Origin: Cenococcum geophilum
Taxonomy: Eukaryota
Length of the DNA stretch: 64,000 nucleotides
Direction of reading: 5' to 3'
Assembly (NCBI GenBank): GCA_050273025.1
Contig: CP158635.1
Location: 13,516,001 to 13,580,000, forward strand
Position 1 is the first letter of the stretch, and every line of letters starts with the position of its first letter. A program made the translations under genes and the position numbers. This document shows, piece after piece, positions 11,031 to 58,329 of this stretch. Below the pieces are notes generated by a model, which had not been told where the DNA came from, did not search any database, and saw only the letters and a program-made list of their open reading frames with translations.

Positions 11031-11034
11031 CGGA

Positions 11035-12785: not shown

Positions 12786-12894
12786 CTTAGGGGGATTCTC
12801 TAGGTGTTTTTCAGGGTTCTTTTGGTTGGTTTTAGTCTTTTTGGGCCGGGTGCAGCAAGAGCTCCAGTCAGTTTTTGAGGTCTCTTAATATAGG

Positions 12895-34480: not shown

Positions 34481-34797
34481 CTTATAGTTAAACCTATTAA
34501 AACTCTAGAACTTATAGCTTTTTAAAGTATATCTTTTTAAAATTAAAAACTTATAAGTTAATATAGTAAATAGTTTATTTTTTATTAAAAAAAGGTATAT
34601 TAATTAATTTTTAGTAATATAGCTATACATTAAGTAAAGCTACTTTATATTAAGTAGGGTAGACCTATAAAATATAGTAGCTAAATATAGAAATATTTAA
34701 TATTAGTACTTATAAGTTTTTAACCTTAGTATATTTATATAGGTAATAAACTTACCTTTTAGTAAGGCTTTAGTAAGGCCGGTTACTATCTATTTTT

Positions 34798-34882
34798 GCC
34801 CGCGAAGCCCTACTGCACGCGTCCACGTCGCCGCGGGTGGAAACATCATCAGGAATTCGTTCCTTTTGATGGCTAAGTGCAG
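34798..34882 (+). ncRNA. HDV-like self-cleaving ribozyme (predicted)
   Basis: P1 GCCCGCG/CGCGGGT with G1.U wobble; P2 CTGCAC/GTGCAG; P3 GCG/CGC; L3 TCCACGT; P1.1 CC/GG; P4 CATCA..AGGAA-TTCG-TTCCT..TGATG; J4/2 GCTAA with candidate catalytic C34873; G1 is the first base after the TSD. Confidence 0.9.
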
Positions 34883-36880
34883 AGGCGATGGTAGGGAGCC
34901 GTCGCAGCGCATGCAACGCGCTGTCGTCGCGGTTCTGTGGTGTTGAGCCCGCGACGCGTACCAAAGCATCGCCCTTAACAACACCAGGAGCCTTACTGCC
35001 TCCGCTTGAGGCTCCTGCTCTACTACCTAGGGAGGCTTATCAAGGGAAACTGGGATATGAAAACCACCCGATGTACGACTACCTGGCTCGTAGCCAGGCC
35101 CGAAACTGGTCTTATCATAGCCAGTCGATGTGGACGCGCCCTAGGCGTACAACAGGACACCCTTAGGCTTGCACTAGCTCTGAGATCGTAAAGGGATGCG
35201 GCGAGGGCGTAGGGAACCTCTTTTTATAAGAACTTGTTAAGGTTAACGCGTCGCAGGCACCTCGTACGAAACTTGTTAAGGCCCCAAGGCCACCGCGAAG
35301 AACTTGTTAAGGCCCTGCCTAGAGAACTCGTTAAGGCCCCTCTACGAGGGCCTATCTGGTACTACTCGACACTCAGGTGACTCAGAAGAGGGTCTTAATA
35401 GGCGTGGTGCGCGCGACCTGGACGACAGACGCGACAGCGACGCGACGGCGACGCGACGGCGACCAGACGGCTCGACGAGGTGGAAACACGGGCAAAGCTC
35501 TAGGCAGCGGAAACACAGGCCAGCTTCGACGGCCCCATGGCGTTCGACCAGGTGACTCACAGGAGGGTCTTAATAGGCGTGGTGCACGCAACCTAACGCG
35601 TATATATATGGGGGAGGCTCTAAGGAAACACAGGCCAGTCGGACGAGGTCCTCGACAGTTAGAGACACAGGCCAGCTTATAAAAAGGGGGGACACAAGCT
35701 TAGTTAGTAGGAGAGGGGGGAATAGGTCGCCTGGCACGAGACCTAGTCTATAGCCCCCTCTTGCAAGACACGGTCGGCCTATTATAAGGAGACTCTTACA
35801 GGTAACGCGAAACGGAAACTAAAAGGCCCGCGGGGCGTAGTACGTAGTAGCCGCTGCTAGCTCTAGGGACCTTACCCCTTAGCTAGGCTCTGACCCCTAG
35901 TGCACCTAGTAGGCAGGCAGGATCACGTCCTAGCTAGAGAGACTACTACGTAGCTCAAGAGAACGGATACGCGTGTCGGTGTACTAATAGACAGGACTGC
36001 TCGCTAGGGCAGTACGCTAGTAAGGGACGCTTAAGGAGCAAACAGGAGTTACTTAGGCGGGAGAGGTTTTAGCTAGGCCTTAACCGTAGAAGGTATACCT
36101 AGCTACATTGCAGGATACAGCCACGACGCCCTCGTAGGACTACGCCAGTAGGCGCGTAAGACGGAAGTTGCGACCCCTGCAAATGGCAGCTTATGCCCGC
36201 GCTAGCGGAAATAATAAAGAGAAGCGTAAAACTAGAGGCTATGGAAGGCTCCTAAGCCGTGCGAAAGCGTACCAACTCTAGGAGGAAACTCTTATATAGA
36301 CCGCTGGGGGGCGGACTAGTACTCGGGCCAATCCCGTTATAAGATATCTGAAAGAACTAGTAAGAATCCCCGTATTAGGTAGTAACAGCCAACTGCTTAT
36401 AGACTAGGACTAAAGTACCAAAAAACTGGGGTAGAGGCCTAGATAAGTAGGTGTATTAAACTCTACTATATTACTAGCTAATATATAACTACCTGCCTTA
36501 ACCACACATGCAACCTTACCAAAAGGTAGCGCCACACTCCAAAACTTACGCATACCCATCTTACCATCAAAAACAATCGATTTTCTAACTTTTAAGACCT
36601 AATTCCTACTGCCTAGCGAGCTAGAGGTGGATTTATTTGTCGTTTTACCCCCTTTTCCTAACAGAAAATTTTCTTTAAGGGTGGCCCTAGCTTATAAGCG
36701 AGGCACGGACAGGAACACTATACCTACTACCACCACCACTAATACCAAAACTACAAAATAGGGGCTAGTTTCTCTACTACCTCTTAGCCTAATCTCCCCA
36801 GAAATCTTCTAGTAGGATTAGTAAGGAGAAAAGGGTATAAGGACAGTAAAAACTAGGAAAACCCCTTTATAAGACACATA

Positions 36881-38265
36881 ATGCTAAGGCCCGGTAGGCC
36901 TAAAAAGAAACCTCCTATAGAAATAAGTGATAATAAGTCTATATCTACACTTACTTTTTCTGCCCCTTCTCCTTCCCCTAGCCTATTTGGGACAGGAGAA
37001 AAAAGAGGACATCCTTAGTCTTCTACTGAAAAAGAAAACTAAAAACCTGCAAAAAAGACAACCAAAATGAGGACTTTTATGGCTGGTATACAGAGTATAT
37101 CTTTTACTCCCCTTTCTCCAGAATAACACCTACAAAAGGCTCTAGATAGCCTAACCCAGGCCTATAAAGGGCTAGAAGAAAAAGAAGAAGAAGAAGAAGA
37201 AAATAAAAAGGAATAAATTAAACAGCTAGAGGACTATACACGTAGTGTTCTAGTAGGAGAAAACCCCTTTATAAAAGGAAAAGAAAAGACAAACAATGTC
37301 CTAAAAGGACTAGTCGAAGAAGTAAGAGCTCTCCGTAAGGAGGTAGCCCCTACTAAAGAAACCTACGCAGAGAGGCTAAAGAAGGACCTCTCTACTTCGT
37401 CCTCTCTACCCTCCTTATCACTACCATTTCCTACTCCTTCTACTTCTACTAGAAGTAAGAAAAAGCAGCTATAAGAAAGAAAGCTAGTCTTAATTACAAA
37501 CTAAAAGGACTAACCTTTAGATACCTTCGCTATACGAAATAAAGTCAATTAACTATTTACATTAAAACTGTAAGTAGAAAAACCTGTTTTAGTATCTATA
37601 ACTAGAACTAAAGGAAAACAAAATATTCTCCTTATAACTACGGAAGAGTATAATGCGGATTTCCTAGTTAAATATAAAGAAATCTGGCATAACTGCTTTA
37701 CCTTTTAAAGAGAACAAAAACTAGAACCTTGGGTTTAAATTATAGCCCATGGGGTTCCTACCCTACCTTTCTTAGGAGAAGGAGGCTCTAAGTTCTAAAA
37801 GAAGAAATTGAGACCTTTAATCCTATAAGGATATAAGGACTACCTAGATGGATCTTATCTAGTGTAAAAAGACACGATCCACAGATTAGATTTAGCTCTA
37901 TAGTTTTTACTATAGAGAACGAAGAAAAAGGACAAGAAATCCTTAAGTAAAAAGAGATATCAATTGCAGGTACAGCTACTAAGGTAGTAAAATACCTCGA
38001 AGTCTCTCCCACTACGCAGTGTACGAGCTGCCAAAAATTTGGCCATATAGGAGATAGGTGCTCTACTAGGGCCTACAGATACTATGCGGCTGTACATTTA
38101 TCTAAAGACTATTCCTGTTCTACCTGTATAATAACAGGCAAGCCTTGCCAGCATACCACCCCTCTTTGCATTAATTGTAAAGAAAAACACTTTGCTAATA
38201 GTAAAGACTGCGAGACTCTTAAAGCTGCTAAACTAGTACGCGAAGAAGAATCTATGGAAGAATAA
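36881..38265 (+). pseudogene. LINE ORF1-like gag protein of a second LINE family, with no ORF2 downstream; RIP stops and frameshifts
   Basis: ETYAERLK, IAHGVPT, GLPRW, SSIVF, QCTSCQKFGHIGDRC...CSTC...CQH...CINCKEKHFANSKDC; followed by only ~310 bp before the A tail; start approximate. Confidence 0.85.
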
Positions 38266-38989
38266 AAACAGATAGGTTTCTAGAAGGAGGCAACTCCTAC
38301 TAGGCTTTTAAAAAGATATTAGAGAACAAAAGGACAGGAACAGGGGTTAGGATTTCTTATAGTTTTTCTTACCATTTTCTTATTCCCTAGTAGTTGTAGT
38401 ATCTTAGTATTTTACTAGGAAACTATAAACTCCTAATTTAGGGGTTTATAAACTACTAGGACATAGCTACTAGTATATATTAAGCTGCCTAGAAAGGATT
38501 TATGTATATAGAACTGTAGCGCCATAGCCCAAGGCTGCATGCGTAGTATTGTACGTAGTATAATACAATAGATATAAAAAATAAAAAAAAATAAAAAAAA
38601 CTATCTATTTTTATATTAAAATATACTATAAGTCTACTTTTTCTTTAGCCGATCTTTTCTATATATAGTAATATTAAATTATAATATACTTTATCTTAAA
38701 GTAGAATTAGATATTTTTAGTTAATAGTATAATGCCTTAATTATTCCTATAGATTATAGTTACTATTAGGTCTTTTTCTAACTTAAATAGCTCTACTAAA
38801 AGGTATTTAAGCTAGACGGCTTACTTAAAAGCCTATTTTTCTCCTATATATTTAGCCTTATAAAATAATAAAATAAGAACTACTTATCCTTTTAATACCT
38901 AGCTAATTATATAAGGTTTAATAGCTTTATATAGCTTAATACTCGTCTAGCTAAGACTTAGTTATATATTTTTTAAAAAAAAATAGAGA

Positions 38990-39580
38990 AAAAGGTATTA
39001 TAGTAAATATAAAGCTCTATATAGAGGTTTAATAGAGCTATATATAAAGCTTTAGTAAAGCTACATATAGAGCCTTAGTAGAGCTCTATATATAGCTTTA
39101 GTAGAGCTTTATATAGGCCTTTAATAGAGCCCTATATAGAGCTTTAGTAGAGCTCTATATAGAGTTTTAGTAGAGCTTTGTATAGGGCTTTAAGGGAGCC
39201 TCGTAGATAGCCTTTAGTAAAGCTTTTTAATAAAGCCTTTGGTAAAACTTTATATAAAGCTTATATAAAGCTTATATAAAGCCCTATATAGAGTATTTAA
39301 TAAAGCTTTAATAGTTAGGGAAATTAATTATAGAGATTAGCTTTAAGCTAGAATTATTATAGATTAATAAACTCTTAATTAAATATAGTATAGACTAAAA
39401 CTAAGCTAGACGCTCTACTAAAGGCTTTGCTAAAAAGCTCTATAGAAAGCTCTACTATAAACCCTCTATAAAGCCCTTAAAACCCTATATAAAGCTCTAC
39501 TAAGATTCTATATAGAGCTCTACTAAAGCTCTATATAGGACTTTACTAAAGGCTCTATTAGAAGTTTTACTAAAAGCTCT
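38990..39580. repeat. Second, fully RIP-mutated copy of the 12-mer satellite palindrome, spacer in reverse orientation
   Basis: 39305-39410 is the reverse complement homologue of 33085-33190; AGAGCT-type arrays on both sides. Confidence 0.75.
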
Positions 39581-39581
39581 A

Positions 39582-42500
39582 TATAAAACCTTTAAGGGAG
39601 ATATAAAAGGTAATATAGTATAGACCCCTCTAGGTAGTATACCTGTACTATATTAATAAGAGGGAAAATACTATTAGGTCTCTACTTTAAGACTTTTATA
39701 AAGGAGTATTCTAACTACCATCTTACCCTATTTACCCTTTATACTATACTTCTATATTATTATAGATTGTTATTAAATATTCTTACCTACCTACCCTTAG
39801 CTTTATTCTACTCTATATATATATATCTATATTGCCTATAGTCCTTTTACCTATAGCTAAATTACTAAGGGCCTATTAATAGAGGTTATTATATATAGAC
39901 TAGGTATACTTTAAACTTATAGTAAAACTTAACTATATGGCTTCCTATTAGATTAGCTATAGGTTATATAACTAGTACTATAAAAGTTATAGATTATACT
40001 AAGGCACTATAAGCTGTTCTTATATTACTTATAGTCTAGTTTAAGGGATTTTTAGCCTTAAACCGCTTAGTATATACCTTAATTTAGTAGAGGCCTTAGT
40101 TAATAACTAGGTAGTAATTTACAAGTTTCTTTAATATCTATATAGTAGTAAAAACTAGTAGTATAAACTATAGATTTAAGGTAAGCTTATTAAAGAGGTC
40201 TAATTAATAATAATTTATTGCTTAACGTCTGATTCGGATCCCTATTGGGCCCACGCGGACTACTCCTTATTTACATATAGGGAGAAAACTCTATTTAAGA
40301 AAAATGAGAAAACCCCATAATCCATCTCCCCGCCTTTTAGGACTCGCCTACTTAGCGCCTATAAGTCGCCTATAGTGCTCTACTACCTTACTGTTTAACC
40401 TCCTTAAGAACCACTGCTGCCGTAATAAGCCTATAGACGCGCTAGTATTATAAACTATTACTCTACTACTATAGAGTTACTAGGGGGCACCTACTACTTG
40501 CCCCCTTGCCTTCTATTATTATTTCCTTTATAACCTAGAACTAATTTAGCATATTTTAACTAATAAGCCACTAGGTAACCGTCTTAAGGCCTTTTTATAT
40601 TAAGAGTAGTGTATTATAGTTCTCTGTGCCAGCTGCTAAGAGTATTATTTCTTAATTAGTACGTAGGGGGCATAGCAGTATTACGTGTTTTAGTGTCTGT
40701 TTTAGCCAGCTATATTTATATCTTAGGCTACCTACTAGGACACCTACCTAGTAAAGCCAATCTTTTAGTCCTATTATTCCTGTTCTTAAGAGTATTGCTA
40801 TTATATTTTCTGCCTTTATTAGGCCTTCTTAGAGCCCTTAGGTATTTACCCCCTATAGCGTTAACTATACTATAGCTTAGGTTTATTTTGCCTAAGTTAG
40901 CCTCTATACCTTTAACTCCCATTTACCTCTCTAGCATTAGTCCAACCAGTATTATATTACGGTAGATGGTTTCCTAACATTCTTATATATTCTACTTTAG
41001 CTCCTTTCTCTGTCTTACTATTATCTTTACTAACCTTTTATACGTCTCCCTTCCTCCTCTATATAGGCCTAGGCCTTAAAGCGGTACTATTCTTTTTCTA
41101 CTTTCTTTACCTGTTTCTCTAATATCTCTTCCCTATTTTAGGGTTATTGGTTTATTCTCCTATAGGGCACCCTAGGGTCCCTCCATAGTTTACTTAGGCG
41201 TGTCTTAATATACTTTATAATATTAGAGTTGCGTTTATTTTATATCCTTTATATTGCAGCGGCTTTAATATATAACTATAGGGGGGGAATATTGGATTCC
41301 TTCTTAAGTAGTGCTGTGGCTGTTTGCTTATACCCGCCTATAATACTCTAAAGGCAGGCTATTTAGACCTTTTAAAGTGGTTTAAGGAGTAATTTAGGGG
41401 GGCCCTTCTTAGTTTCTCTAATGGCCTAAATACTGGATCTATATATTATGGTTAGCCGGACAACTACTATATATAGTAGGCGTGACCTCTAGAAGTATGG
41501 ACCTTATATAGAATTAACAATCCTAGATAAAGCAATGAACTGTACTTAGCCTTTATGGGCCGCTTGCGCCGTATATGCGCTTTACTAGAGCTTATTATCT
41601 ACCTATACTCCTAATACCCTTAGGCCCTAAACTAGTTAACCTTTAAAGCCTTAGATGTAAATTATATACTAAAGATCTATAGATTGGTTGCGTTTTCTTA
41701 TAAAATAGATTAGCTAGTATTTCTCTGGTAAGAATTAGACTCTATAATATTTTGCCTATTCTATATAAGTATTATAAGCTTTCTCTAGTGTTCTGCAATT
41801 CTCTACGGTTGTTGGCCCGTATATAATTAGGTTTATATTATTAACAAAGCCTATCCCCCAGGTTGCCCCTTCCTTAAAGGAGTTAAGTAGGTTGCTTATA
41901 AAGAAAAGGAAGAGTATAGGCAAGAGGGGTAATCCTTATAGTATTCCTATTGTAATTGCGATAGGGGGGCTCTGGTATCCGCTAAAGACTAGTAATATTT
42001 TTTTCTGGCCTATAAACCCTTGGACAAATTATATAATCTATTTTAGGAAGCCCTTTACCCTAAGGATATATAGGAGACGCTTATGGGGTATATTGTCGTA
42101 GGCACCACTAATGTCTAGGCTAAGCATTAATACTATAAAGTCCTTTTATATCACCTATGCAGATTTAATAGTGGTAGTGAGTAGCGTAAGTGCTAATAGT
42201 ATTAAGCGGTTCTTTCTTGCCCCTATTTGGCTTTATAGTAGTAAGGCGTGTTCCTTTACCATATTTACTATGCGTTCCGCTATTACCCTTTTTAAGATCT
42301 TACTAAGGGTGTTTTCTAAGGCAATAAGGCGGTAGCTTCCTAGGATTAAGTAATCTACTTTACCTTTTTTTTATAGGATAACTATTATTATAGATCTTCT
42401 AAGTTACGGGTAGTAGCCTATAGTAAAGCATACTCTGGCTATATCTATAAGCTAAGGTGCTATAAGTGGCCTATAGGTTTTTAGGGCCTTATTTAAAATC

Positions 42501-45500
42501 CTATCTAGTCCTAGTACTATATTATTTAAAAGGCGGCTAATAGTTCTAGCTATTTCCTCTGTTATTATATCGCTATTAACCCATAGGCGAGTTACCGGTA
42601 TTTCGCCTATAATATTACTAAGGTCTGCTAGAGCTAGTTAGGGGAAGAACCTTTCTATAAGGATCTTTACCTTCTTATTATTATTATTTATAGCCTATAA
42701 TTCTCCTGCTCTTTATAGGGGTAGTAGGTATAGGTCTTTTACTAGGCGCCCTACCTTTTCTTTACCTATTTTGCTATAGCCTAAAGGCCCTTATTATAGG
42801 GGAGGCTTAGGTTAAAAGTATACTTATTTATAAACCGTCTCTAGTTATTCCTTACTTCTTTTTTTAGGGTATTCTTTAGCTAGTTTCTTATGTCTTTATA
42901 TTATCTCTTATCTTTAGGGTTATAGCTACTTATATATTTCCTTCTTACTTATTATTAGCTGGTAACCAGAACTATATATTATATAGACTATGCGTGTTAC
43001 GTATAGGGGCCCAGTTTTAAGATCAGGCAGTGCTCTTTTAGCCTATTTTTAATTACTGCCTAGATCCTTTTTAGTCTTCGGTTGATTTCCTTAGGGGTGG
43101 CTAATAAGCCTCGCTTGTTTGGTATTGGGTGGATTTCTTTTAGGTCTTAAAGTTGTTGTTTAACTGCATTAAGGAAACTGTCTATTTTAAGCTTCCTTAT
43201 TATATATCTTTTTCTATTTAGTTGCGCTTTAGTATCTAGGTCTAGCTATATTTAAATAGGGATATAGTCTAAGGTAAGTGCCTATTCTTCTTTAGGGTTA
43301 TACCTTTTAAGTCTCTAGTATAGGCCTTTATCTATAAATGTGAGGTTAATTATACTTCTAGCGGTGCCTTATTGCCATATAATTGCTTTTAGGGGGGTAG
43401 CTAGCTTAAGGCCCTAGATATCTATAGCTCTTAGTAGGCACTCTAACTATTAATCTACAGTAATATAGATGCCCCTCTACTACGGGTAGTAGAGGTTTAT
43501 ATCTTTTAGTAGGATAGACTCTATACCTTTGGTTTCTAATAAGCTTATTACCGATATAATATTCTCTATTTATAGGACTCCTTTAACCCTAGGGTTATAT
43601 ATATTAATAATTTATACCAGTCCCCTATATATTTAAATTGTTATAACTATAATATCTAGGTTAACTGCCTGCTATAACTATAAGGATAGGCTAATAGCCT
43701 TACTAATTATAAAGTATACGCGTGTGGCTGCTTTTGGTTTATATAGGAGCTAGAATCCTTAGGGGCAGTATATTAATTGTGTAAAGGTATTGTAATACGG
43801 TTCTTGTATAGCAAGGATATAGTATTTCTTTAGGTTTAGACTGTTTAGTAGGGGCCTTATAAGGCGGTAGTTTATATTACCGCAGTTATACTGTATAATA
43901 AATAGGTGGCGGACCCCCGGCGAGGGTCCTTTAACTCTCCTTTATTCCTTACTTCTTCTATTTCTACTTTCTTTAGGATATTTAGAGCTTCTATCTCTTA
44001 TATCTACACCCTAGTTACTACTTATTTTATATAGAGCTTTCTATTTCCGTATCTTATATTCCTATTAGCGCTTTTATATCTAAATCTATTATTATTACCA
44101 GTTCTTCCCCTATTCTTACTAGTTGGCTATATACCCTTTATGGGTTAGCTATAAATATTATATTTACCGTATTAAGTCTAATTCTTAATTATCCTGGTCT
44201 TAAGCCTACTGTTACTATTTATAGGGGTCTTCCTACGGGGCGTCCTCTCCCTTATATCCCCTGTAACCCTTATATCCCTAATCGGTCTAGTAATATCGCG
44301 TGGCGTTACTTCTAGCCCGTTAAGGCTTAGGATAGCTGGCCTAGCCCTCTAGTATTAAAGGTAGGAAACGCTAAAAAGGTGCCTATGTCCCTATAGCTTA
44401 TCGCCTATTGTTTCTATTTATATAACCTAGCGTGCAGTTATTCCCGCAGCTGTTAAGCCCTTACCTTCTGTCTCCTGTATTTAATACAGTCTTCTCTCTC
44501 CTACGCCTTATGTGTGCTTTAGTGGCAGTTCGCGTATTTTATTTAGTCTTAATTTAAATAGTGTCTTATATTATAGGGGCCTATATAGTGGCCGCAGTAT
44601 ACCTATGCTGCGTATATAGATTGGGTGTGTCCCTATTATATATAGCGATAGTATTATTCTAGGTATAGTCTGTAGTTATAGAGCCTTATATTGTATATAA
44701 GGCTATTTATAATTATTCCTTTTTAGATAAGGAGTTTTTATATTCCTGGTGTATATATACTAACAATAAGGGAGCTATATATTTGTCTGGTGTCTCCCTA
44801 GCGAGTCTCTAACAACCCTTATATCCTCTTATTGTTTTTATTATATACTTAGTTTACATTTTCCTATTAAAGCTATTAAATTTAGGTGATTTTAAGTCTT
44901 AATATAAGGCGTTCCGTTTATCTTACTATCTTTTATATAATTGCTATGTTGTTTACCTAGCGTCCCTTTTCTACCCTAAGGCTTATAGGAACCGCTAGGA
45001 CTTTAACTAGGTAATCCTTACGGAGTACTTTTATACCAATACGTTCTCCTAGCCTATCCCCTACCCTTATAGCTCGTTCCTTTACCTATTAGTCCTTTAG
45101 GGTAACTTTAATATCTTCGCTTTTAAGGTATTAGACTATAATAGCGTTATAAACCTCTTTATATATTTTAATAAGGACTTTTGTTTCTAATTATCCCCTA
45201 AGCCCCTCTACTTATTCTATGTTTGGTTATATTATAATTATATACCCATTTATTAACTTAAGGGGGGTAGGTTCCCTATGCTATAAAAGCGCAGCTATGG
45301 CGGCCTAGGTGCGGTTCGCCGGTAAGGGGGGGTTATACTTATTTTTAATTTTACTTAGCTATTAGAGGATTTAATTAAGGGTTTACTAGAGGGGCGCCTA
45401 AGGTTTGCTAAACTGGCGGAGCCATTCTACTAGCTATATTAGTTTGTTATAGCTAACGGTTACTCCCCTGTAATTCTAAATACTAAACGCGTCTAATAGG

Positions 45501-46974
45501 CTTTATATTTTATTAGATGCCTTCTTAATAGAGGTATTTCCGCTTTATAGTGTGGTATTCGCCCGTCTTTATTGTGGAGGGCTATTGCTGGGCGTAGTTC
45601 TAGCGGTCGCGCGCGAGTGCGAGCCACCGTCGTTTGACGTATGCCTCCCCTGCGATGCATATATCTTAGGGGGATTCTCTAGGTGTTTTTTAGGGTTCTT
45701 TTGGTTAGTTTTGGTCTTTTTGGGCCGGGTGCAGTAAGAGCTCTTAAGGGGGTAGGTTTTCTAGTTTAATAGGGGCGAGTCTAGTAGAGTTATGGGGTAA
45801 GGTTGCTTAAGAGGTCTAATTATAAGTCTTTTTAAGAAATTTAGGCCTAGTTAACTAGGTATAAAAAGTGAGTCTAAAGGCTAAAAGGTCTCTATTATTT
45901 TTATTATTAGGCCTTTATAATTAAGGTAAATATTCTATACCTTAAAGGGGTCCTTATAAATAGAATATAGGTAGTTTATTATCTTTTCTTTATAGAGAAG
46001 GGGGTTTACTAAGTCTTAAGTATATCGCGGATATAGGTATATCTAAGTATTTCTACTAATATAGCTAAAGATATAGGCTATTTTTACTAGGGTAATAGGG
46101 AATAGTCTATATTAACTTTAAGCTTATTCTATAATTAAAGCTTTTAGTACTTTATAAAATTAGCCTTTATATATCTATATAGTAAGGCTTAAGAACTTAA
46201 TAGCTACTATTAACATTTTATCAAAATTATATTAATAAACTACTAGAGTAAACGCGGAGATATATATAGAGCTATATAGCGCTAATGCTACGATATAGTA
46301 GTAGTACGGAAAGTTTTTCTATTAGGAGGTTAAGCCCTAATAAAGGCCTATAAATACAACTACTATATCTTTATATATATATCTACTATACTTAGATTAC
46401 AGCATTAACCTATAGTAGTAATCCCCTTCTTTTTATATAGTATAGTAATATACTATATAGTACCTATATATAGCTAAACCGTATATATCTTATAGGTAAA
46501 AGGCCTATAATAAACCTCTTATCTAAAATAACTTCTACTCTCTTTATATCTTAACCTATCTAATATATTATAATATATATTATAGTATAGGTACCCAGCT
46601 ATAGGGGCTTAGTATACCCTTATATCTAATATTAGATTAAGGGCGCTATTAAATATAGAAAGATAAGAAATAGAGGTAAAGAAGGATTATTAAAATAGGG
46701 AGAGTTATTTAGCTATAAGTAGGAAGACTATCGGCAACGCGGATATATATATAAAGTAATAAAAAGCTAGGGATAGGTAAGTAATAATATTTAATAGCAA
46801 TTAATAATAATATAAAGGGTAAATAAAGTAGGATAAATAATTAGGATACTCCTTTATAGGACTCTTGGAGTAATAGCCTAGTAGTATTTTTCCTCCCATT
46901 AATATAGTATAGATATACTACCTAGAGGGGTATATACTATATTACCTCTTTTATCTTTCTTAATGGATTTTATA
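39582..46974. mobile_element. Unclassified relic bounded by ~270-bp inverted repeats (39582-39864 and 46705-46974), interrupted by LINE copy 3
   Basis: CCCCTCTAGGTAGTATA...TATAAAGGAGTATT...TTTACCCTTT on the left matches the reverse complement of the right block; interior not decodable. Confidence 0.5.
40207..45808 (-). mobile_element. Tad1-like LINE copy 3 with ~65 bp of foreign sequence at its 5' junction
   Basis: Homologous to copy 1 up to 45743; 14-bp TSD AAGAGGTCTAATTA (40193-40206 and 45809-45822). Confidence 0.93.
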
Positions 46975-47782
46975 CCTAATATTAACGGGATTAGTTTTTA
47001 TAAACCTTATTTAGGACCGTATTAAATAATAATTAAGAGTTAATAATATTAGCGCCTTAGTTAATTAAGGTATAAGTATAATAAGAGGGATGTATACAAG
47101 CCTATATAGTTAAATTATCTATAAATAAGGATCTAAAGCTAGAGAAAGAAAAAGAAAAGAAATTAGCACCGCTTAATATTTTATAAGATCTTTATATTAC
47201 ATAATCGTAATATATAGTAGTTTATAGTAACTTGCTAGTATAGAGAACTATAAAGTTTTGCTAAGTTCTACTAACTAAATTCTACTATTTTCTGCTAGTG
47301 CCGTAATATTATCCCCCCCCTTAATAAAGCCTACCCTTAGGCTTTATATATCTATATTACTCCTATAGGGCGTTCTTATCCTTATATTCTTCTAGTAGCT
47401 TATTATCTTTACTATACTAGCAGTATATCTACTTATTTAGGAGCTTTAAGAGTTCTAGTTTATTAGGGTAATAGCTATAAAAATTTTAAAACTTATAGGG
47501 ACTGCTAATAAAGTTCTATATAAGGTACTAGGTAGGATTTAAATTATAACCTTTCTAATTAACGTAGTATTTTAGTGTTCTCCTTACTAGTATTTCTTTA
47601 ATTTCCTGTTATCGCTATTAACTTAAATTAGTAAGGGGGGTTAATTCTTTTATTTAGGTAATAGGTTATCTATAGCTTTTTATAGCTTATTTAGTAAGAA
47701 AATAGGGTAAAGCTTTATTAAATCTAAGAGTTTTACCTTATATAAGTTGCCTTTCCTTTTAAGAACCTTATATAGTCCTAAT

Positions 47783-47867
47783 GCCTGCGACGCCCTACTG
47801 CACGCGTCCACGTCGCCGCGGGTAGAAACATCATCAGGAAAACCTTCCTTACGATGGCCAAGTGCAG
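47783..47867 (+). ncRNA. HDV-like self-cleaving ribozyme (predicted), copy 2
   Basis: P1 GCCTGCG/CGCGGGT; identical P2, P3 and L3; P4 CATC..AGGAA-AACC-TTCCT..GATG; J4/2 GCCAA; P1.1 GG changed to AG at a RIP-type TpG site. Confidence 0.85.
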
Positions 47868-49264
47868 AGGCGATGGTAGAGAGCCGTCGCAGCGCGTGCA
47901 GCGCGCTGTCGTCGCGGTTCTGTGGTGTTGAGCTCGCGACGCGTACGAAGCATCGTATAAAGCATCGCCCCCAACACCACCAGGAGCCTCACTGCCTCCG
48001 CTTAAGGCTCCCGCTCTACTATTTAGGGAGGCAATTAATCAAGGGAAACTGGGATACAAAAACCACCCGACGTACGACTACCTAGCTCGTAGCTAGGGCC
48101 GAAACTGGCCTTATCAAGCCAGCGGATGCGGACGCGTCCTAGGCGTACGACAGGACACCCTTAGGCTTGCACTAGCTCTGAGACCGAGAGGATACGGCGA
48201 GGGCGTAGGGAACCTCTTTTTATAGGAACTTGTTAAGGTTAACGCGTCGCAGATACTTCGTACGAAACTTGTTAAGGCCCCAAGGCCACCGCGAAGAACT
48301 TGTTAAGGCCCTGCCTAGAGAACTCGTTAAGGCCCCTCTAAGGGCCTATCTGGTATCTGGTATACCCAGGTGACTTAGAAGAGGGTCTTAATAGGCGTAG
48401 TGCGCGCGACCTGGTCGACAGCGACAGCGACGCGACGGCGACGCGACGGCGACTAGACGGCTTAACGAGGTGGAAACACAGGTAAAGCTCTAGGCAGCGG
48501 AAACACAGGCCAGCTTTGACGGCCCTATGGCGTTAAAAGGTGACTTATAGGAGGGTCTTAATAGGCGTGGTGCACGCAACCTAATGTATATGTATAAGGC
48601 AACTTATAAGAGGGTCTTAATAGGCGTGGTGTATGTAACCTAATGCATATATATGGGGGAGGCTGTAGGGGAAACATAGGCCAGTTGGACAAGGACTCGA
48701 TAGTTAGAGATATAGGCCAGCTTATAGGAAGGGGGGATACAAGCTTAGTTAGTAGGAGAGGGGGGAATAGGTTGCCTAGCACGGGACCTAGCATCTCTAC
48801 GGCCCCCTCCTATAAGACGCGGTCGGCCTATTATAAGGAGACTCCTATAGGCAACGCGAAATAGGAACTAGCAGTAGTATAGGGTGTTACGCCCCTATAC
48901 TACTACTAGTTTCCTATAGAGCGTAGTATATAGCAGCCACTGCTGGCTTTAAGGACCTCACCCCTTAGCTAGGCTTTAACCCTTAGTGCACCTAATAGGC
49001 TGGCAGAATTACGTCCTAGCTAGAGAGACTATTATATAGCTTAAGAGAACGGATACGCGTATTGGTATATTAACAGATGGGACCGTTTGCTAGGGCGGTA
49101 CGCCGGTAAGATATATTTAAGGAGCAAATAGGAGTTACTTAGGCGGGAAAGGTTTTGGCCCTGCCTTAACCGTAGAAGGTAGTGACGCCTAAGGGTAGGA
49201 ATAAGCCACTAGAAAATTGGGGTAGAGGCCTAGATAAGTAGGCATGTTAAACTCTACTATATTA

Positions 49265-52200
49265 ATAATTCATTGCTTAACGTCCGATTTGGATCCCTAT
49301 TAGGCCCACGCGGACTACTCCTTATTTACATATAGGGAGAAAACTCTATTTAAGAAAAATGAGAAAACCCTATGATCCATCTCCCCGCCTTTTGGGATTT
49401 ACCTACTTAGCGCCTGTGAGTCGCCTATAGTGCTCTACTACCTTACTGTTTAACCTCTTTAGGAACCACTGCTGCCGTAATAAGCCTACGGACGCGCTAG
49501 TATTATAAACTATTACTCTACTACTATAGAGTTACTAGGGGGCACCTACTACTCGCCCCCTTACCTTCTATTACCATTTCCCTTACAACCTAGAACTAAT
49601 TTAGCATATTTTAACTAATAAGCCACTAGGTAACCGCCTTAAGGCCTTTTTATATTAAGAGCAGTGTATTATAGTTCTCTATGCCAGCTACTAAGAGCAT
49701 TATTTCTTAATTGGTGTATAGGGGGCATAGTAGTATTACGTGTTTTGGTGTCTATCTTAGCCAGCCACATTCGTATCTTAGGCTACCTACTAGAACACCT
49801 ACCTAGTAAAGCCAATCTTTTAGTCCTATTATTCCTGTTCTTAAGAGTATTACTATTATATTTTCTGCCTTTATTAGGCCTTCTTAGAGCCCTTAGGTAT
49901 TTACCCCCTATGGCATTAACCATACTATAGCTTGGGTTCGTCTTACCTAAGTTAGCCTCTGTACCTTTAACTCCTATTTACCTCTCCAGCGTTAGTCTAA
50001 CCAGTATTATATTACAGTAGATGGTTTCCTAGCGTTCTTACGTGTTTTACTTTGGCTCCTTTCTCTATCTTACTGTTATCTTTACTAACCTCTTACGTAT
50101 CTCCCTTCCTCCTCTATATGGGCCTGGGCCCTAAAGCGGCACTATTTTTCTTCTACTTTTTTTACCTGTTTCTCTAATATCTCTTCCCTACTTTAGGGTT
50201 ATTGGTTTATTCTCCTATAGGGCACCCTAGGGTCCCTCTATAGTTTACTTAGGCGTGTCTTAATATACTTTATAATATTAGAGTTACGTTTATTTTATAT
50301 TTTTTATATTGCAGCGGCTTTAATATATAACTATAGGGGGGGAATATTAGATTCCTTCTTAAGCAGTGCTATAGCCGTTCACTTATACCCACCTATAATA
50401 CTCTAAAAGTAGGCTGTTTAGACCTTTTAAAGTAGTTTAAGAAGTAATTTTAGGGGGCCCTTCTTAGTTTCTCTAATGGCCCAGATACTGGATCTATATA
50501 TTATGGTTGGCTAAACGACTACTATATATAGTAGGCGTGACCTCTAAAAGCATAGACCCTATATAAAATTAACAATCCTAGATAAAGCAATAAACTATGC
50601 TTAGCCTTTACAGGCCGCTTATGCCGCATATATGCTCTACTAGAGCTTACTATCTACCCATACTCCTAATACCCTTAGGCCCTAAACTGGTTAACCCCTA
50701 AAGCCTTAAATGCAAATTATATGCTAGAGATCTATAAATTAGTTACGTTTTCTTATAAAATAGATTAGCTAGTATTTCTCTAGTAAGAATTAAACTTTAT
50801 AGCGTTTTGCCTACTCTATATAAGTATTATAGGCTTTCTCTAGTATTCTATAGTTCTCTACGGCTGTTAGCCCGTATATAATTAGGTTTATATTATTAAC
50901 AAAGCCTATCCCCTAGGTCGCCCCTTTCTTAAAAAAGTTAAGTAGGTTGCTTATAAAGAAAAGGAAGAGTATAGGCGAGAGGGGTGATCCTTATGGTATT
51001 CCTATTGCAACTATAATAGGGGGGCTCTAGTATCCGCTAAAGACCAGTAATATTTCTTTCTAGCCTATAAACCCTTAGACAAATTATATAATCCATTCTA
51101 GGAAGCCCTTTACCCTAAAGATATATAGGAGACGCTTATAGGGTATATTGTTATAGGCACTATTAATATCTAGGCTAAGCATTAATACTATAAAGTCCTT
51201 TCGCATCGCCTATGCAGATTTAATGGTGGTAGCGAGTAGTATAAGTGCTAATAGTGTTAAGCGGTTCTTTCTTACCCCTATTTAGCTTTATAGTAGTAGG
51301 GCGTATTCCTCTACTATATCTACCATGCGTTCCGCTATTACCCTTTCTAAGATCTTACTAAGGGTGTTTTTTAAGGCAATAGGGCGGTAGCTTCCTAAGA
51401 TTAAGTAATCTGCTTTGCTTTCTTTTTATAGGACAACCGTCGTCATAGATCTTCTAAGTCGCAGGTAGTAGCCTATAGCAAAGTATACTCTAGCTACATC
51501 TGCAAGCCAAGGTGCTATAAGTAGCCCATAGGTTTTTAGGGCCTTATTTAGAATCCTATCTAGTCCTAGTGCTATATTATTTAAAAGGCGGCTAATAGTT
51601 CTAGCCATTTCCTCTATTATTATATCGCTGTTGACCCGTAGGTAAGTTACCGGTGTTTCGCCCATAATATCACTAAGGTCTACTAGAGCCAGTTAGGGGA
51701 AGAACCTTTCTATAAGGATCTTTACCTTCTTATTATTATTATTTATAGCCTATAATTCTCCTACTCTTTGTAGGGGTGGTAGGTGTGGGTCTTCTACTAG
51801 GCGCCCTACCTTTTTCTTTACCCATTTCGCTATATCCCAAAGGCCCTTATTATGGGGGAGGCTTAGGTTAGAAGTATGCTTATTTATAAACCATCTCTAG
51901 TTATTCCTTGCTTCTTTTTTTAGGGTATTCTTTAGCTAGTTTCTTATATCTTTATATTATCTCTCGTCTTTAGGGTTATAGCTGCTTATATATTTCCTTC
52001 TTACTTATTATTAGCTGGCAACTAGAACTACGCATTATATAGACTATATATATCGCGCATAGGGGCCCGGTTTTAAGATCGGGTAGTGCTCTTTTAGCCT
52101 ATTTTTAATCGCTGCCTAGATCCTTTCTAGTCTTTAGTTAATTTCCTTAGGGGTAGTTAATAGGCCTTACTCGTTTAGTATTAGGTGGATTTCTTCTAGG

Positions 52201-54821
52201 TCTTAGAGTTATTGTTTAACTATATTAAGGAAACTGTCTATCTTAAGCTTCCTTATTACATATCTTTTTCTATTTAGTTACGCTTTAGTATCTAGGTCTA
52301 GCTATATCTAGATAGGGATATAGTCTAGGGTAAGTGCCTATTCTTCTTTAGGGTTATACCTTTTAAGTCTCTAGTATAGGCCTTCATCTATAAATATAAG
52401 GTTAATTATACTTCTGGCGGTGCCTTATTGCCATATAATTGCTCCTAGGGGGGTAGCTAGCTTAAGGCCCTAAATATCTATAGCTCTTAGTAGGTACTCT
52501 AACTATTGGTCTGCAGCAATATAGATACCCCCCCACTATAAGTAGTAGAGGTTTATGTCTCCTAATAGGATAAACTCTATACCTTTAGTTTCTAGTAAGC
52601 TTATTACTAATATAATATTCTCTATTTATAGGACCCCTTCGACCCTAGGGTTATACACATTAATAATTTATACTAGTCCCCTATATATTTGGATTATTAT
52701 AACTGCAATATCTAGGTTAACTACTTACTATAACTATAAGGATAGGCTAATAGCCTTGCTGATTATAAAGCATATACATATGGCTGCTTTTAGTTTATAT
52801 AGGAGCTAGAATCCTTGGGGGCAGTATGTCGATTATATAAAGGTATTGTAATACGGCTCTTATATAGCAAGGATATAGTATTTCTCTAGGTCTAGACTGT
52901 CTAGTAGGGGCCTTATAAGGCGGTAGTTTATATTGCCGCAGTTATATTATATAATGGATAGGTAGCGGACCCCCGGCAAGGGTCCTTTGACTCTCCTTTA
53001 TTCCTCACTTCTTCTATTTCCACTTTCTCTAGGATATTCGGAGCTTCTATCTCTTATATCTACACCCTAGTTACTACTTATTTTGTATAGAGCTTTCTAT
53101 TCCCATATCTTATGTTCCTATTAGCGCTTCTATATCTAAATCTATTATTATTACTAGTTCTTCCCCTATTCTTACTGGTCGGCTATATACCCTTTATAGG
53201 TCGGCTGCGAATGTTATATTTGCCGCATTAAGTCTAATTCTTAATTATCCTAGTCTTAAGCCTACTGTCGCTGTCTATAGGGGTCTTCCTACGGGGCGTC
53301 CTCTCCCTTATGTCCCCTGTAACCCTTATATCCCTAATCAGTCTAGTAATATTACGCGGCATCGCTTCTGGCCCGTTAAGGCTTGGGATAACTAGCCTAG
53401 CCCTCCAGTATTAAAGGTAGGAAACGCTAGGAAGGCACCTACGTCCCCCTAGCTTATCGCCTGTTGTTTCCATTTATATAACCTAGCGTACAGTTATTCC
53501 CGCAGCTGTTAAGCCCTTGCCTTCCGTCTCCTATATTTAATGTAGTCTTCTCTCTCCCACGCCTTATGTGTGCTTTAGTAGCAGTTCGCGCATTTTATTT
53601 AGTCTTAATTTAAGCAATATCTCGTATTGTAGGGGCCTGCACAGTGGCCGTAGCACACCTATACTGCGTATATAGATTAGGTGTGTCCCCATTATACACA
53701 GCAATAGCATTATTTTAGGCGTAGTCTATAGTTATAGAGCCTTATATTATATATAAGGCCATTTATAATTATTCCTTTTTAGATAAGGAGTTTTTGCATT
53801 TCTAGTATATATGTGCTAATAATAAGGGAGCCATGCGTTCGTCCGGCGTCTTCCTAGCAAGTCTCTAGCGACCCTTATGTTCTCTCGTTGTTCTTATTAT
53901 ATGCTTAGTTTACATTTTCCTATTAAAGCTATTAGATTTAGGTGATTTTAAGTCCTAGTATAAGGCGTTCCGTTTATCTTACTATCTCCTATATAATTAC
54001 TATATTGTCCACCTAGCGTCCCTTTTCTACCCTAAGGCTTATAGGAACCGCTGGGACTTTAACTAGGTAATCCTCGCGGAGTACTTTTATGCTAATACGT
54101 TCTCCTAGCCTATCCCCTGCCCTTACGGCTCGTTCCTTTGCCTATTAGTCCTTTAGGGTAACTCTAATGTCTCCGCTCTTAAGGTATTGGACTATAATAG
54201 CGTTATAAACCTCTTTACGTATCTCTATAAGGACTTCTATTTCTAATTATCCCCTAAGCCCCTCTACTTATTCTATATTTAGTCGTATTATAATTATATA
54301 CCCAGTTATTAACTTAAGGGGGGTGGGTTTCCTATGCTATAAAAGCGTAGCTACGGCGGCCTAGGTACGGTTCGCCGGTAAGGGGGGGTTATACTTATTT
54401 TTAATTTTGCTTAGCCGTTAGAGGATTTAATTAAGGGTTTGCTAAAGGGGCGCCTAAGGTTTGCTAGACTAGCAGAGCCATTCTACTAGCTATATTAGTT
54501 TGTTATAGCTAACGGTTACTCCCCCGCAATTCTAGATACTAGACGCGTCTAATAGGCTTTATATTTTATTAGATGCCTTCTTAATAAAGGTATTTCCGCT
54601 TTATAGTGTGGTATTCGCCTATCTTTATTATAGAGGGCCATTGCTAGGCGTAGTTCTAGCGGTCGCGCGCAAGTGCGAGCCACCGTCGTTCGACGTGTGC
54701 CTTCCCTGCGATGCATACATTTTAGGGGGATTCTCTAGGTGTTTTTCAGGGTTCTTTTGGTTAGTTTTGGTCTTTTTGGGCCGGGTGCAGCAAGAGCTCT
54801 AGTTAGTTTTTGAGGTCTCTT
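49265..54821 (-). mobile_element. Tad1-like LINE copy 4, full length
   Basis: 15-bp TSD AACTCTACTATATTA (49250-49264 and 54822-54836); same 5' end as copy 1. Confidence 0.95.
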
Positions 54822-57800
54822 AACTCTACTATATTATAGCTAATATATAACTACCTACCTAAGATATAAATATAGCTGGCTAAGACAGACACCAAAACAC
54901 GTAATACTGTTATGCCCCTTACGCACTAACTAAGAAGTAATACTCTTAGTAGCTGGCATAGAGAACTATAATACACTGCTCTCGACATAAAAAGGCCTTA
55001 AGGCGGTTACCTAGTGGCTTATTAGCCAAAATATACTAAACCAGTTCTAGGTTGTAAAGGAAATAGTAATAGAGGGCGGGGGGGGCGAGTAACGGGCGCC
55101 CCCTAATAACTCTACAGTAGTAGAGTAAAGTTTACGATACTAGCGCGTCCGTAGGCTTGTTACGGCAGCAGTGGTTCCTAAGGAGGTTAAAAAGTAAGGT
55201 AGTAGAGCACTACAGGTAACTCGCAGGCGCCTCGTAGGCGCCTTATAGGCGAGTCCTAAAAGGCGGGAAGATGGATTATAGGGTTTTCTTAAATAGAGTT
55301 TTCTCCCCATATGTATATAAGGAGTAGTCCGTGTGGGCCCAATAGGGATCCAAATCGGACGTTAAGTAATGAATAATAATATATAGTCCTAATATTTAAT
55401 AGCCTAGCTTATAGCTAGGTTGTTCTACCCCCTAGTTCTTTATTATAACCTAAACTATATTACCTATAATAAAGTTAGGCTTACGCCTATACTTATTTAT
55501 CTACTATTCTATTAATTTTTAGGCCTTTTTTATATTTGTATAGGCTACTATCTAGGCTTCTTCTAAGCGCTTAACGTACTACTAGGCTTCCTTATAAAAT
55601 AGTTTTTTGCGTATAGTCTAAGGTTCTTTTAGTCTTTTTGGTTAAAGCTAGTATAGGGTAAATAGCTAATTTCTAGTTAGATAGGGGCAAATCTAGTAGA
55701 GTTATAGGGTAGGGTTGCCTAGGTATAGTTTATAAGGGGTAGTAGTTTAATATAATTATTTTAGAAATAGTTAATAAAGGGCCGGAGCCTCTAGTCTAGG
55801 TATTAGTTTATAATTTCTATTTAACTATCTATTTAGGAGTAGTATACTATAAAAAGCTTTAGTTTAATACCTAAAATCTAGGTAAACTTATTCTAGAAGG
55901 CTGATATAAACTATAGGCTATAATTATATAAAATAGTATCTAGTAGTTTATAAATTTAGTAGACGTAGTAAATATATAGTTAGGCTACCTCTTTAGTATT
56001 AATATTTTTATAATAGGGAATTAAGAATAGATGTTTACTAAAGTAGTTAACTAGGATTATAACTATATTATATCTGTTACGGTTTATAGGTAGCTTATAA
56101 AAGTCTATAGAGATATATTACTAGGGGCGATTAGGTATTAAGAGAGGTTTTAATAATTCTAAGGTTTTGTCTTATAGAATTATAAACTTATAGTAACTAT
56201 TATAGTTCTCTATATAATAGTTAATATTTATAGCTATTCTAGGCTAATAGTAACGGTTACTAATAATCTTATAGGTCCTATTGTTTTATAAAATAGGCTA
56301 TAAAGACCTAGGTATATACTTTAGTAATAAGCTAAGTCTATAAATTCTATTTCTTTACTACTACTAGCTATACCTAATACTTAAGCAATTTATTTTTAAG
56401 GGACTATAGGCTAGTAGTATTCTTTGCCTTTTGCGGCACTCCTATAAAGAAGGGGCTGTATAGTTTACCTATAGTAGTTTATTAATAAGGTTAAGTTCTA
56501 TAGAGTTAATAGGGTATATCTTAGCTTCTAAACATTATATACTTAGTTCTACCTATATCTAAGGGTTAAGGTACTTTAGTTATAGTAGCGTTTAGCTCTA
56601 TAATAAGATCTTTATAGCTACCTATTTATCTATATCCTATTTATATCTTATAAGTATATTTATATAGTTAGTAGCGCTTAGCCTATATATAATTAGGAAG
56701 TTAAACTAAAATAGAATATTTATTTAGCGCACCTACTATATTATAAGGGCCTTTATTATTATAAAATATTCTAAGGCCTTATAATTAGAAACTAACTAAA
56801 TAGGCTTAGGGGTTCCTTTTAACTATACTCGCTAGTACTAAAAGCTAGAGATAATAGCTAGCATTTCTTTATTATAAATTAGGTAGTTTAGCCTAGCGTC
56901 TATTATAGTCTTTAAATAGTAAGTAATAGGGTCCTATCTTCTATCCGTTTACTTTTAGAAATAAATACTAGCTATAATACTATCTAAGGGCCGTTTTAGG
57001 TTAAAGTGGATAAATAAGAGAATAGAGACTAGTTATTTCTTAAGCTTATTAAAAGCCTACCTATATATAGTATTAAAGTAAAAGGGCTAGTCTTTGTAGG
57101 TAAGGCAATTAAGGGGTCTATTAATCTTGCTATAGTCCTTAATAAAGCGTTAGTAGAAGTTATAAAAACCTAGAAATAATTATACTCCCTTTACGGTCTA
57201 TAGGGGTGCCTACTAGGTAATTACAGCCGTTTTTTTAGGTTAGTTTTAATTCTATTTATATTAATAATAAACCCCAAGTACTTTATATATTTAATACTAA
57301 ACTTTAACTTCTTAATATTAGCCTAGAGGCTAGCCTTATAGAGTCGTTAGAGAACTTTATAAACGTACTCCTTATATTTTAGATTATTCTTAAAGTAGAT
57401 TATACTATTATCTAGGTAGGCCGTATAGAAGTCATTAAGGTAGTTAAAAGGTATATTATTTATATACCCCTAGTATGTAGCCGCTCTATTAGTTAGCCTA
57501 AAAGGTAGTACCTTATATTTATACATTTTATAATAGGTCTAAAATATAGTAAAATCCTTAGAGCTAGGGTTTATTTTAATTTAGTAAAAGGCCTAGTGGA
57601 TATTAGGCTTTATAAAGACCTTAGCTCTACTTATTTAGGCTAGTGTCTTATTAAATAGGAGTAGTAAATAGCGGTCCTTACGGGTTATATTATTTAATTT
57701 ATAGTAATTAATATAAAAACAGAGTCCTCTATTTAGGTTTTTAATAAAGAGAAAAGGTAAGTTAAAAAGGGCTTAACTAGGCTTAATAAAGCCCTTATTT

Positions 57801-58026
57801 AGGTTATTAGTACGGTATTATTTTATAGCCTATAATTAAGTAGTAGACTACTAGTAAAGGGGGCTAAAGCTAAGGGCATTTTCCTTATCTAGCTTAATAT
57901 TAATTTTATAGTTATATAGTTAGTAAGGCGGGAGTCTATTAAACGCTACCTTAGAAAATATATCCTTTAACTTTTAGTATTAATAGAGTAGTTTCTATTT
58001 TACTAGCTTTTTATCTATAAGCTTAC

Positions 58027-58329
58027 TGTAACGGGACTAGCCCAGTTATAGTAGGAATGTCTCAGTGAAACACTCGATAGATAAATTCCGACGCTTTGAC
58101 CAAAATCTACCAGATCAATCGAATTACCGAAGTCCGTTAAAGACCGCGTGCGTACATGCGTACGCATCAACCACCAAGCCCCTGACTATTTAATTATATA
58201 ATTCTCTTATTATTTCTTTCTCTTCTTTACGCAACGTCTTGTTCTTAGCAAGAGCTATATACCCTTAGATTTAGATAGAATTTATATTATTCCTTCAAAT
58301 CTTCCCTAAAGTCTCTCCGCGCCCTTATA
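58027..58329 (+). repeat. 5' LTR of Gypsy C
   Basis: TGTAACGGG...GCCCTTATA; direct repeat of 63681-63983. Confidence 0.95.

Follow-up and report, generated by a model that had tools for sequence, protein, structure and literature searches.

A GC-rich leader with a predicted ribozyme head joined at a fixed end to several LINE families in Cenococcum geophilum

A 64,000-nucleotide stretch of the Cenococcum geophilum genome (assembly GCA_050273025.1, contig CP158635.1, positions 13,516,001 to 13,580,000 of the forward strand; the whole of it is called the window here) contains two insertions that share one GC-rich, non-coding 5' sequence, the leader, and continue into two different partners derived from long interspersed elements (LINEs). 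Both leader copies begin at a G that is the predicted cleavage site of a hepatitis delta virus (HDV)-like ribozyme, and both end at the same position. In public metagenome contigs this end is followed by many different partners, and the leader seems to have been copied into the genome over a hundred times, always with its fixed 3' end on the tail part of a LINE. It is likely that the leader is a discrete, ribozyme-headed RNA spread by template switching of LINE reverse transcriptases (RTs). An earlier note, made from the letters of the window, had put forward this model, which the window and the metagenome junctions largely support.

Two chimeric insertions in the window

Leader and LINE copies were called from a self-comparison of the 64-kb window. 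This comparison and the flanking repeats bear out the proposal that the leader occurs twice, each time within its own 13-14 bp target-site duplication (TSD). The two copies align at 34797-35611 versus 47782-48599 with 88.8% identity and at 35555-36095 versus 48602-49181 with 78% identity; further matches pair 36405-36476 with 49196-49267 and 36449-36498 with 54813-54860. Copy 1 (34798-38599) and copy 2 (47783-55379) are each a single insertion, composed as follows.

34785-34797, plus strand: 5' TSD of copy 1, ACTATCTATTTTT; identical 13-mer at 38600-38612
34798-36497, plus strand: leader of copy 1, GC-rich and non-coding, with a GCC end; matches copy 2
36498-38599, plus strand: 3' partner of copy 1, a non-autonomous LINE derivative with open reading frame 1 (ORF1) only, a 3' untranslated region (UTR) and an A-rich tail
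38600-38612, plus strand: 3' TSD of copy 1, ACTATCTATTTTT, with the A-rich tail just before it
47769-47782, plus strand: 5' TSD of copy 2, TATATAGTCCTAAT, that is (T)ATATAGTCCTAAT; same 14-mer at 55380-55393
47783-49264, plus strand: leader of copy 2, first part, without the 310 nucleotides (nt) present at 36096-36404 of copy 1
49250-49264 and 54822-54836: 15-nt duplication, AACTCTACTATATTA, the TSD of the nested LINE (copy 4)
49265-54821, minus strand: nested full-length local LINE (copy 4), a later insertion that splits copy 2
54837-54859, plus strand: leader of copy 2, last part, ending ACC, that is GCC with G>A
54860-55379, plus strand: 3' partner of copy 2, a sense-oriented, 3'-terminal piece (~520 nt) of the local LINE, with a AATAATAA tail
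55380-55393, plus strand: 3' TSD of copy 2, (T)ATATAGTCCTAAT, the repeat of 47769-47782
7316-12888, 19599-25134, 40205-45743 and 49251-54823, minus strand: full copies of the local LINE, from the self-comparison

In both copies the first base, a G, stands immediately behind the TSD, confirming the shared start that the earlier note had seen. Its shared stop point holds as a position, with one correction: the copies diverge after ..AACTACCT[G/A]CC, at 36497 and 54859, and the leader ends GCC, the next T belonging to the partner. The continuation of copy 2 into the final ~520 nt of this LINE was likewise described correctly. In the junction alignment the LINE reads ..GTAGCC and then, across the join, TAAGAT.., and GCC(T) is common to both parents. 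The short leader variant, like the first part of copy 2, is also found in DNA and RNA contigs.

An empty-site contig from DNA run X1, in which 34797 is joined straight to 38614, confirms both borders of copy 1. The flanks in this contig (34600-34797 and 38614-38799) are ~12% diverged and present at high depth, which indicates that copy 1 was inserted into another repeat, one that occurs without copy 1 as well.

The local LINE is represented by four full 5.55 kb copies, all on the minus strand and ~91% alike, and by a fifth piece on the plus strand (54858-55387) corresponding to its last ~520 nt. This partner of copy 2 matches the 3' ends of the four full copies at 84-85%. A sister copy carries an RVT_1 domain at 41078-42880. 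The earlier note had called this LINE Tad1-like; what characterises it here is RVT_1 and its relatedness to partners with APE and RT. All four full copies share a common 5' end without the leader, and one has its own TSD.

One leader end and many partners

Junctions beyond the window were collected by scanning public metagenome contigs with a degenerate 25-nt anchor located 50-70 nt before the leader end. At least 125 stretches matched; 124 loci (1.11 Mb) were analysed, with long flanks for the first 80, and all junction counts given here come from these. The listed matches comprise 134 distinct anchor contexts, 127 of which have a readable junction, and no locus is shared by two contexts.

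The leader end is fixed across these loci. Homology to copy 1 amounts to 46-143 hits per 50-nt leader bin and drops from 115-143 to 1-2 right after the equivalent of position 36497. The letters that follow ..AACTACCT are GCC in 60 cases, ACC in 19, GCT in 10 and ACT in 5, so that 94 of the 127 listed junctions carry the typical end, ...ACCTGCC, either intact or altered by C>T/G>A. The sequence directly behind the junction varies: 73 junctions enter the local LINE, 19 an internal position of the leader and 35 other sequence. Every partner that can be classified is in sense orientation (73/73 for the LINE and 19/19 for the leader, together 92/92). The 73 LINE junctions are distributed over 52 sites, from position 13 to position 5218 of 5573; 38 of these sites are unique and 14 are common to two to four distinct copies, and at least four junctions are located within 94 nt of the 5' end of the LINE. 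The 35 other partners form several groups, each again entered at different points.

The earlier note had predicted many partners joined at one leader position, and the 127 listed, independent junctions follow that prediction. It had also named two contrary patterns: a leader that always serves a single LINE as its 5' UTR, and a scatter of junctions along the leader. Here, the scatter is instead on the side of the partners, which are multiple, and the leader end does not move.

Partners differ in kind as well as in entry point. Groups B and E encode an APE endonuclease together with RVT_1, while group F has RNase H and a poly(A) end; Pfam searches of groups C and D found nothing. Identity among the RTs of the local LINE (group A), B and E is 43-46%. 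The carriers include at least four LINE families that differ in their tails, in agreement with the suggestion that RTs of more than one family are involved.

The translation of the copy 1 partner contains a broken ORF1 with three CCHC knuckles (36884-38262), and it is this knuckle pattern that identifies it as ORF1, bearing out its description as an ORF1-only element with an A tail. Pfam gave two weak, sub-threshold hits to it (16.5-16.7 bits against cut-offs of 27 and 29.1) and no match to a LINE ORF1 family. There is no relative of this partner elsewhere in the window. Its last 330 nt match the tail of the group F poly(A) LINE with RNase H. An independent ORF1-only copy, at 18600-20025 of locus L016, starts at the equivalent of 36501 and lies inside the 3' end of a local-type LINE. 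On the basis of this one copy and of the depth step at the leader end described below, the partner is probably a complete ORF1-only derivative of the group F LINE. The final ~150 nt of the partner (38407-38599) form the deepest bin in the DNA runs, are deep in RNA contigs as well and recur in four other loci; this segment looks like a 3' module common to the members and derivatives of a larger family of poly(A) LINEs.

The insertions are also defined at their outer borders. All 45 ribozyme-bearing 5' ends (43 in the loci and two in the window) start at the same G, with unrelated AT-rich flanks upstream. The upstream extent could be judged in 79 contexts, of which ~40 are full length and 39 are truncated 5', interrupted or the second unit of a concatenate; another 53 contexts run off the available sequence. 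In 29 of the 40 cases with a distinct full-length start, 13-16 bp of the 5' flank recur downstream, always directly behind the partner's own tail and at least 452 nt past the junction. By tail, 22 of these TSD-resolved copies end in the local LINE and 7 in other families. Among the 40 full-length starts no TSD stands directly behind the leader, and no TSD encloses the leader alone.

Four public runs were aligned to the copy 1 stretch 34600-38800, which holds the leader and the ORF1-only partner. In one DNA run, 14098 contigs align to it, and the leader bins are far deeper than the flanks; depth rises three- to six-fold in the bin holding the leader end. The differences among aligned contigs are mostly transitions, as expected of mutation resembling repeat-induced point mutation. 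The elements found here are members of families that are very abundant.

The leader and its predicted ribozyme head

The first bases of both leader copies can be arranged as an HDV-like ribozyme.

34798-34886, plus strand: predicted HDV-like ribozyme fold of copy 1, with the predicted cut just 5' of G34798
47783-47871, plus strand: predicted HDV-like ribozyme fold of copy 2, with C>T/G>A changes (P1.1 G>A, P1 C>T)

The fold was written out as a P1 of 7 bp closed by G1-U, followed by P2, P3, a two-pair P1.1, P4 and a J4/2 of GC(U/C)AA. At relaxed thresholds, the Rfam HDV_ribozyme model (RF00094) aligns end to end (model positions 1-89) to 34796-34889 and places G+1 at 34798; at the gathering level, Rfam has no match anywhere in the window. 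Across 43 leader starts, the 32 pairs of the nested double pseudoknot are formed in 93.6% of cells, as compared to 32-52% in controls in which the pairing partners were slid. The pair that closes P1 (columns 1 and 41) is GU in 40 of 42 copies and AU in two, and the C of J4/2 (C76 of the first sequence) is invariant across the aligned copies. P4 occurs in subtypes that change on both sides of the helix, for example GGAAU/AUUCC, GGAAC/GUUCC and GGAU/AUCC. A strict descriptor requiring perfect pairing finds 18 sites in 1.17 Mb, both strands included, and all 18 are leader starts. Neither Rfam nor this descriptor places an HDV-like fold at the start of any other element. Minimum free energy folding of the ribozyme segment gives z scores of -0.8 to -1.0, which say nothing for or against a fold that is pseudoknotted.

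Structure and position thus agree with the ribozyme-made 5' end proposed in the earlier note, while activity is a prediction from the model: the first base of the leader is the predicted cleavage site, and self-cleavage there would set the 5' end.

The P4 subtypes are distributed unevenly over partners. The commonest, which belongs to a leader of ~1846 nt, is fused to the local LINE in 17 of its 18 TSD-resolved copies, and six tail types are represented among the remaining subtypes. This pattern suggests bursts of joint activity of a single leader variant with a single LINE.

Overall, the leader is 1.5-1.85 kb long and GC-rich. No consistent ORF of at least 150 aa is present in the 12 most GC-rich leader copies, and the leader has no similarity to the local LINE, its 3' end included. 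Rfam finds no second ribozyme or other family within it and no ribozyme on its minus strand. The leader folds somewhat better than shuffled sequences (z -2 to -4.4), with a rod fraction of 0.11-0.14 as compared to 0.14-0.16 for shuffles. None of the 45 starts is preceded by a leader end, and none of the 19 leader-to-leader joints is at position 1, which excludes head-to-tail arrangement in this set. A deltavirus- or viroid-like circular RNA copied into DNA was considered and rejected, given the lack of a rod fold, of a second-strand ribozyme and of permuted junctions. Identity as a short interspersed element (SINE) was rejected as well, there being no solo leader among the 29 TSD-resolved copies and no LINE-like 3' end.

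Internal repeats are found at 35225-35340, 35375-35611 and 48368-48658 and comprise four copies of GAACTTGTTAAGG, two or three of a 62-nt unit, and motifs resembling GGAAACACAGGCCAG. In the RNA reads of run X24 and in some contigs, an extra 62-nt unit appears as a joint that goes back 45. One metagenome locus (L114, 1-625) contains a leader end, ..TAACTGCCTGCC, free of C>T/G>A decay and followed by GC-rich sequence; this copy may be young or still active. The terminal helix at this end is no better than in shuffles (z -0.7).

Two further repeat types occur in the window. Extended arrays of 12-nt and 23-nt units, on both strands, lie at 32500-34200, 39000-39600 and 27650-28105, between LINE copies and adjoining copy 1; the units are GAGCTTCGAGCA-like and palindromic TAGAGCTCTATATAGAGCTTTAG-like. 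A direct repeat of 304 nt with 92% identity (58024-58327 and 63678-63981) is located outside the elements described here.

Proposed template switching, its alternatives and known systems

The sequence at the junctions offers a view of how the join may arise. With transitions counted as matches, 56 of the 73 LINE junctions have microhomology of at least 2 nt, consisting of 2-3 nt of (G)CC; against a pyrimidine-pair background of 0.194 in the local LINE, this corresponds to P ~6e-26. The same microhomology is present at 13 of the 19 leader-to-leader joints. In addition, single LINE sites are used by different leaders: site 3283 by copies with long and with short 3' leader variants, and site 5041 by window copy 2 and by locus L064, which differ in P4. 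Microhomology and the reuse of sites by different subtypes together suggest repeated, homology-guided switching of complementary DNA (cDNA) synthesis from LINE RNA onto the leader 3' end, and argue against one founder chimera, against end ligation and against independent landing of the leader.

Fixed ends, scattered entry points, sense-only orientation, TSDs and microhomology are read directly from the insertions. From these we infer a free leader RNA and a template switch during reverse transcription, as opposed to an earlier joining. The sequence of events would likely involve: cutting of a discrete non-coding RNA by the HDV-like ribozyme just before its first G; a fixed 3' end, ...CUGCC, without a tail that a LINE enzyme could recognise; normal priming of a LINE RT on its own RNA tail at the target site, and copying of part or all of that RNA; and, once (G)CC has been copied, a shift of the RT to the matching 3' end of the leader RNA. 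The RT would then copy the leader up to its ribozyme-made 5' end, and the whole product would integrate with one TSD. Chimeric retrocopies, with the leader as their 5' part and several LINE families as carriers, would thereby be the leader's only way into the genome.

A number of observations weigh against this proposal. The RF00094 alignment to copy 1 scores 28.4 bits (E 0.14), below the gathering score of 50, and Rfam reports no HDV match for copy 2 (E up to 10) or for the most GC-rich leader copy (L051, 4451-4545). In the latter a deletion has removed P4 and what follows it up to and including the 3' strand of P2, which accounts for the missing match. The variation among the pairs is largely C>T/G>A; it carries low weight and may be mutational noise. 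At the other end of the leader, 33 of the 127 listed junctions lack RYY after ACCT, Rfam finds no 3'-end-forming motif in the unmutated end region of L114, and DNA alone does not distinguish whether GCC is the leader's own or partly supplied by the partner. For 11 of the 40 full-length copies no TSD was found, some of these being on short contigs. No source gene of the leader is found among the listed loci. Most of these loci derive from just two or three sets of metagenome data, probably of one species, and thus probably represent many insertions rather than many lineages.

The RNA data add to these points. Raw RNA reads of run X24 cross the copy 1 junction unbroken, at depths of 12.5, 16.4 and 17.4, and no pile-up of read starts is reported at 34798 in this run. 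An RNA contig of run X15 reaches 45 nt upstream of 34798 into GC-rich sequence, and is either uncut RNA or DNA in the library. A 24-nt upstream extension of this contig is absent from the window and from all loci, and the contig may represent precursor RNA that was transcribed from a source locus and not yet cut. RNA depth in X15 is greater on the leader than on the copy 1 partner; this excess is not counted in favour of a free leader, since most leaders have other partners and the copy 1 partner is heavily mutated.

Of the other explanations, the one that survives best places the fusion before reverse transcription, by an RNA ligase, by trans-splicing or through founder chimeras amplified as units in the manner of SINEs. 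The 14 LINE sites common to two to four copies look as if some chimeras do amplify in this way, sense-strand RNA spans both the leader and the copy 1 partner, and MINE chimeras are described as transcribed in Magnaporthe (PMC2104539). Set against this, 38 of the 52 sites are unique, and the use of shared sites by different leader subtypes points to hot spots rather than to descent. The 2-3 nt (G)CC overlap at 56 of 73 junctions also fits annealing of cDNA, not the ligation of ends. Fusion before copying is therefore unlikely as the general route, and amplification of chimeras as units may add to the copy number.

It is much less probable still that a single autonomous LINE has the leader as its ordinary 5' UTR, the chimeras being by-products of LINE RNA recombination. 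Its internal repeats resemble those of some LINE 5' UTRs, four junctions are within 94 nt of the local LINE 5' end, and HDV-like ribozymes head several LINE families (for L1Tc, see PMC3185411). A 5' UTR would be expected to have a constant continuation, and there is none: the leader enters the local LINE at 52 sites and at least five other partner groups besides. The four full LINEs of the window, one with its own TSD, share a 5' end that lacks the leader, and no HDV-like fold was found where other elements start. The leader may nonetheless descend from a LINE 5' UTR. A leader that inserts by itself, with its partners being repeat-rich landing DNA, would suit a genome so dense in LINE copies that LINE flanks are common, and can be dismissed because random landing would give about half sense partners rather than 92 of 92, because in 29 of 40 cases the partner reaches its own tail and then a TSD matching the leader's 5' flank, and because no TSD stands directly behind the leader.

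Within the template-switch proposal, a more specific version is possible and is put forward tentatively: the leader not as a host RNA captured by chance, but as a selfish, ribozyme-capped '5' hitchhiker' that multiplies only by offering the RTs of several LINE families a ...GCC landing site. The subtypes that keep the ribozyme fold, with P4 changing on both sides, and the leader-to-leader concatenates suggest that copies, rather than one gene, feed new rounds. If this is true, it requires a signal inside the leader that frees its 3' end from downstream sequence.

Template switching as such is not new. The 5' RNAs of mammalian L1 template-switch chimeras are known cellular RNAs with genes of their own. 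The U6-L1 chimeras (cited in PMC2104539) resemble the present ones in having a full-length small RNA at the 5' end, a 5'-truncated LINE at the 3' end, one TSD and an origin in LINE reverse transcription. The leader differs in being long, headed by a predicted ribozyme, diversified into subtypes and very abundant.

The nearest precedent is MINE of Magnaporthe, correctly named as such in the earlier note. According to PMC2104539, MINE consists of a full-length 1.1 kb WEIRD RNA fused to pieces of the MGL LINE of 230-5461 nt; 33 chimeras are described, with repeats of 10-20 bp and with a tripartite form, and no solo WEIRD. That paper gives a GCC*A/U consensus at the LINE switch sites and reports no microhomology. 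The comparison drawn here is with this published description rather than with the WEIRD sequence itself. On that basis, the two systems share a non-coding 5' RNA of ~1-2 kb whose 3' end is constant, a LINE truncated 5' to varying extents, one TSD round the whole chimera, multi-part chimeras and the absence of a solo 5' RNA (PMC2104539). The window copies and the 29 of 40 TSD-resolved starts combine a constant 3' end, variable LINE points, the same orientation and one TSD, as chimeras of the MINE type do. GCC precedes the LINE switch sites in MINE (PMC2104539), and here it is the leader itself that ends in GCC. The present system differs in that its leader starts with a predicted HDV-like ribozyme fold, in having at least 127 junctions as compared to 33 (PMC2104539), in using at least four carrier LINE families with different tails, in its clear microhomology, and in that about half of the assessable leaders are truncated 5' or interrupted. 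The ribozyme head, the far higher numbers, the several carrier families and the clear microhomology are what is added over MINE.

R2, RTE and other elements without long terminal repeats (non-LTR elements) have HDV-like ribozymes at their 5' ends. The leader's predicted fold shares with these P1, P1.1, P2, P3 and P4, the G-U at the cut, the C of J4/2 and its location in the first bases of the element. The ribozymes of non-LTR elements head autonomous elements, or deletion derivatives that keep the matching 3' end; unlike these, the predicted ribozyme here heads an RNA without coding capacity or a 3' recognition tail. L1Tc is a published case of an HDV-like ribozyme at the 5' end of a non-LTR retrotransposon (PMC3185411). 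On HDV-like ribozymes in non-LTR elements of fungi, the literature searched yielded general papers and this L1Tc paper only. No publication in it was found to connect a ribozyme with WEIRD or MINE, or template-switch chimeras of this sort with HDV-like ribozymes. With SINEs, the leader has in common that it is non-autonomous and mobilised by LINE enzymes. SINEs differ in that they carry or mimic a LINE 3' end and are primed directly, whereas the leader has no such tail and never stands alone between TSDs.

Chimeric retrocopies are usually seen as rare accidents of LINE reverse transcription. One RNA with well over a hundred events, several LINE families and base-exact ends looks like a strategy rather than an accident. 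The 5' ribozyme provides a concrete and testable reason for the fixed start, and the GCC overlap a reason for the position of the switch. WEIRD of Magnaporthe may belong to the same class as the leader, in which case the finding bears on the nature of WEIRD-type RNAs and on why no solo gene has been found for them; the GCC end of the leader may also explain the GCC site consensus of MINE. With the chimeras of C. geophilum, template jumping by LINE enzymes can be studied in a natural setting.

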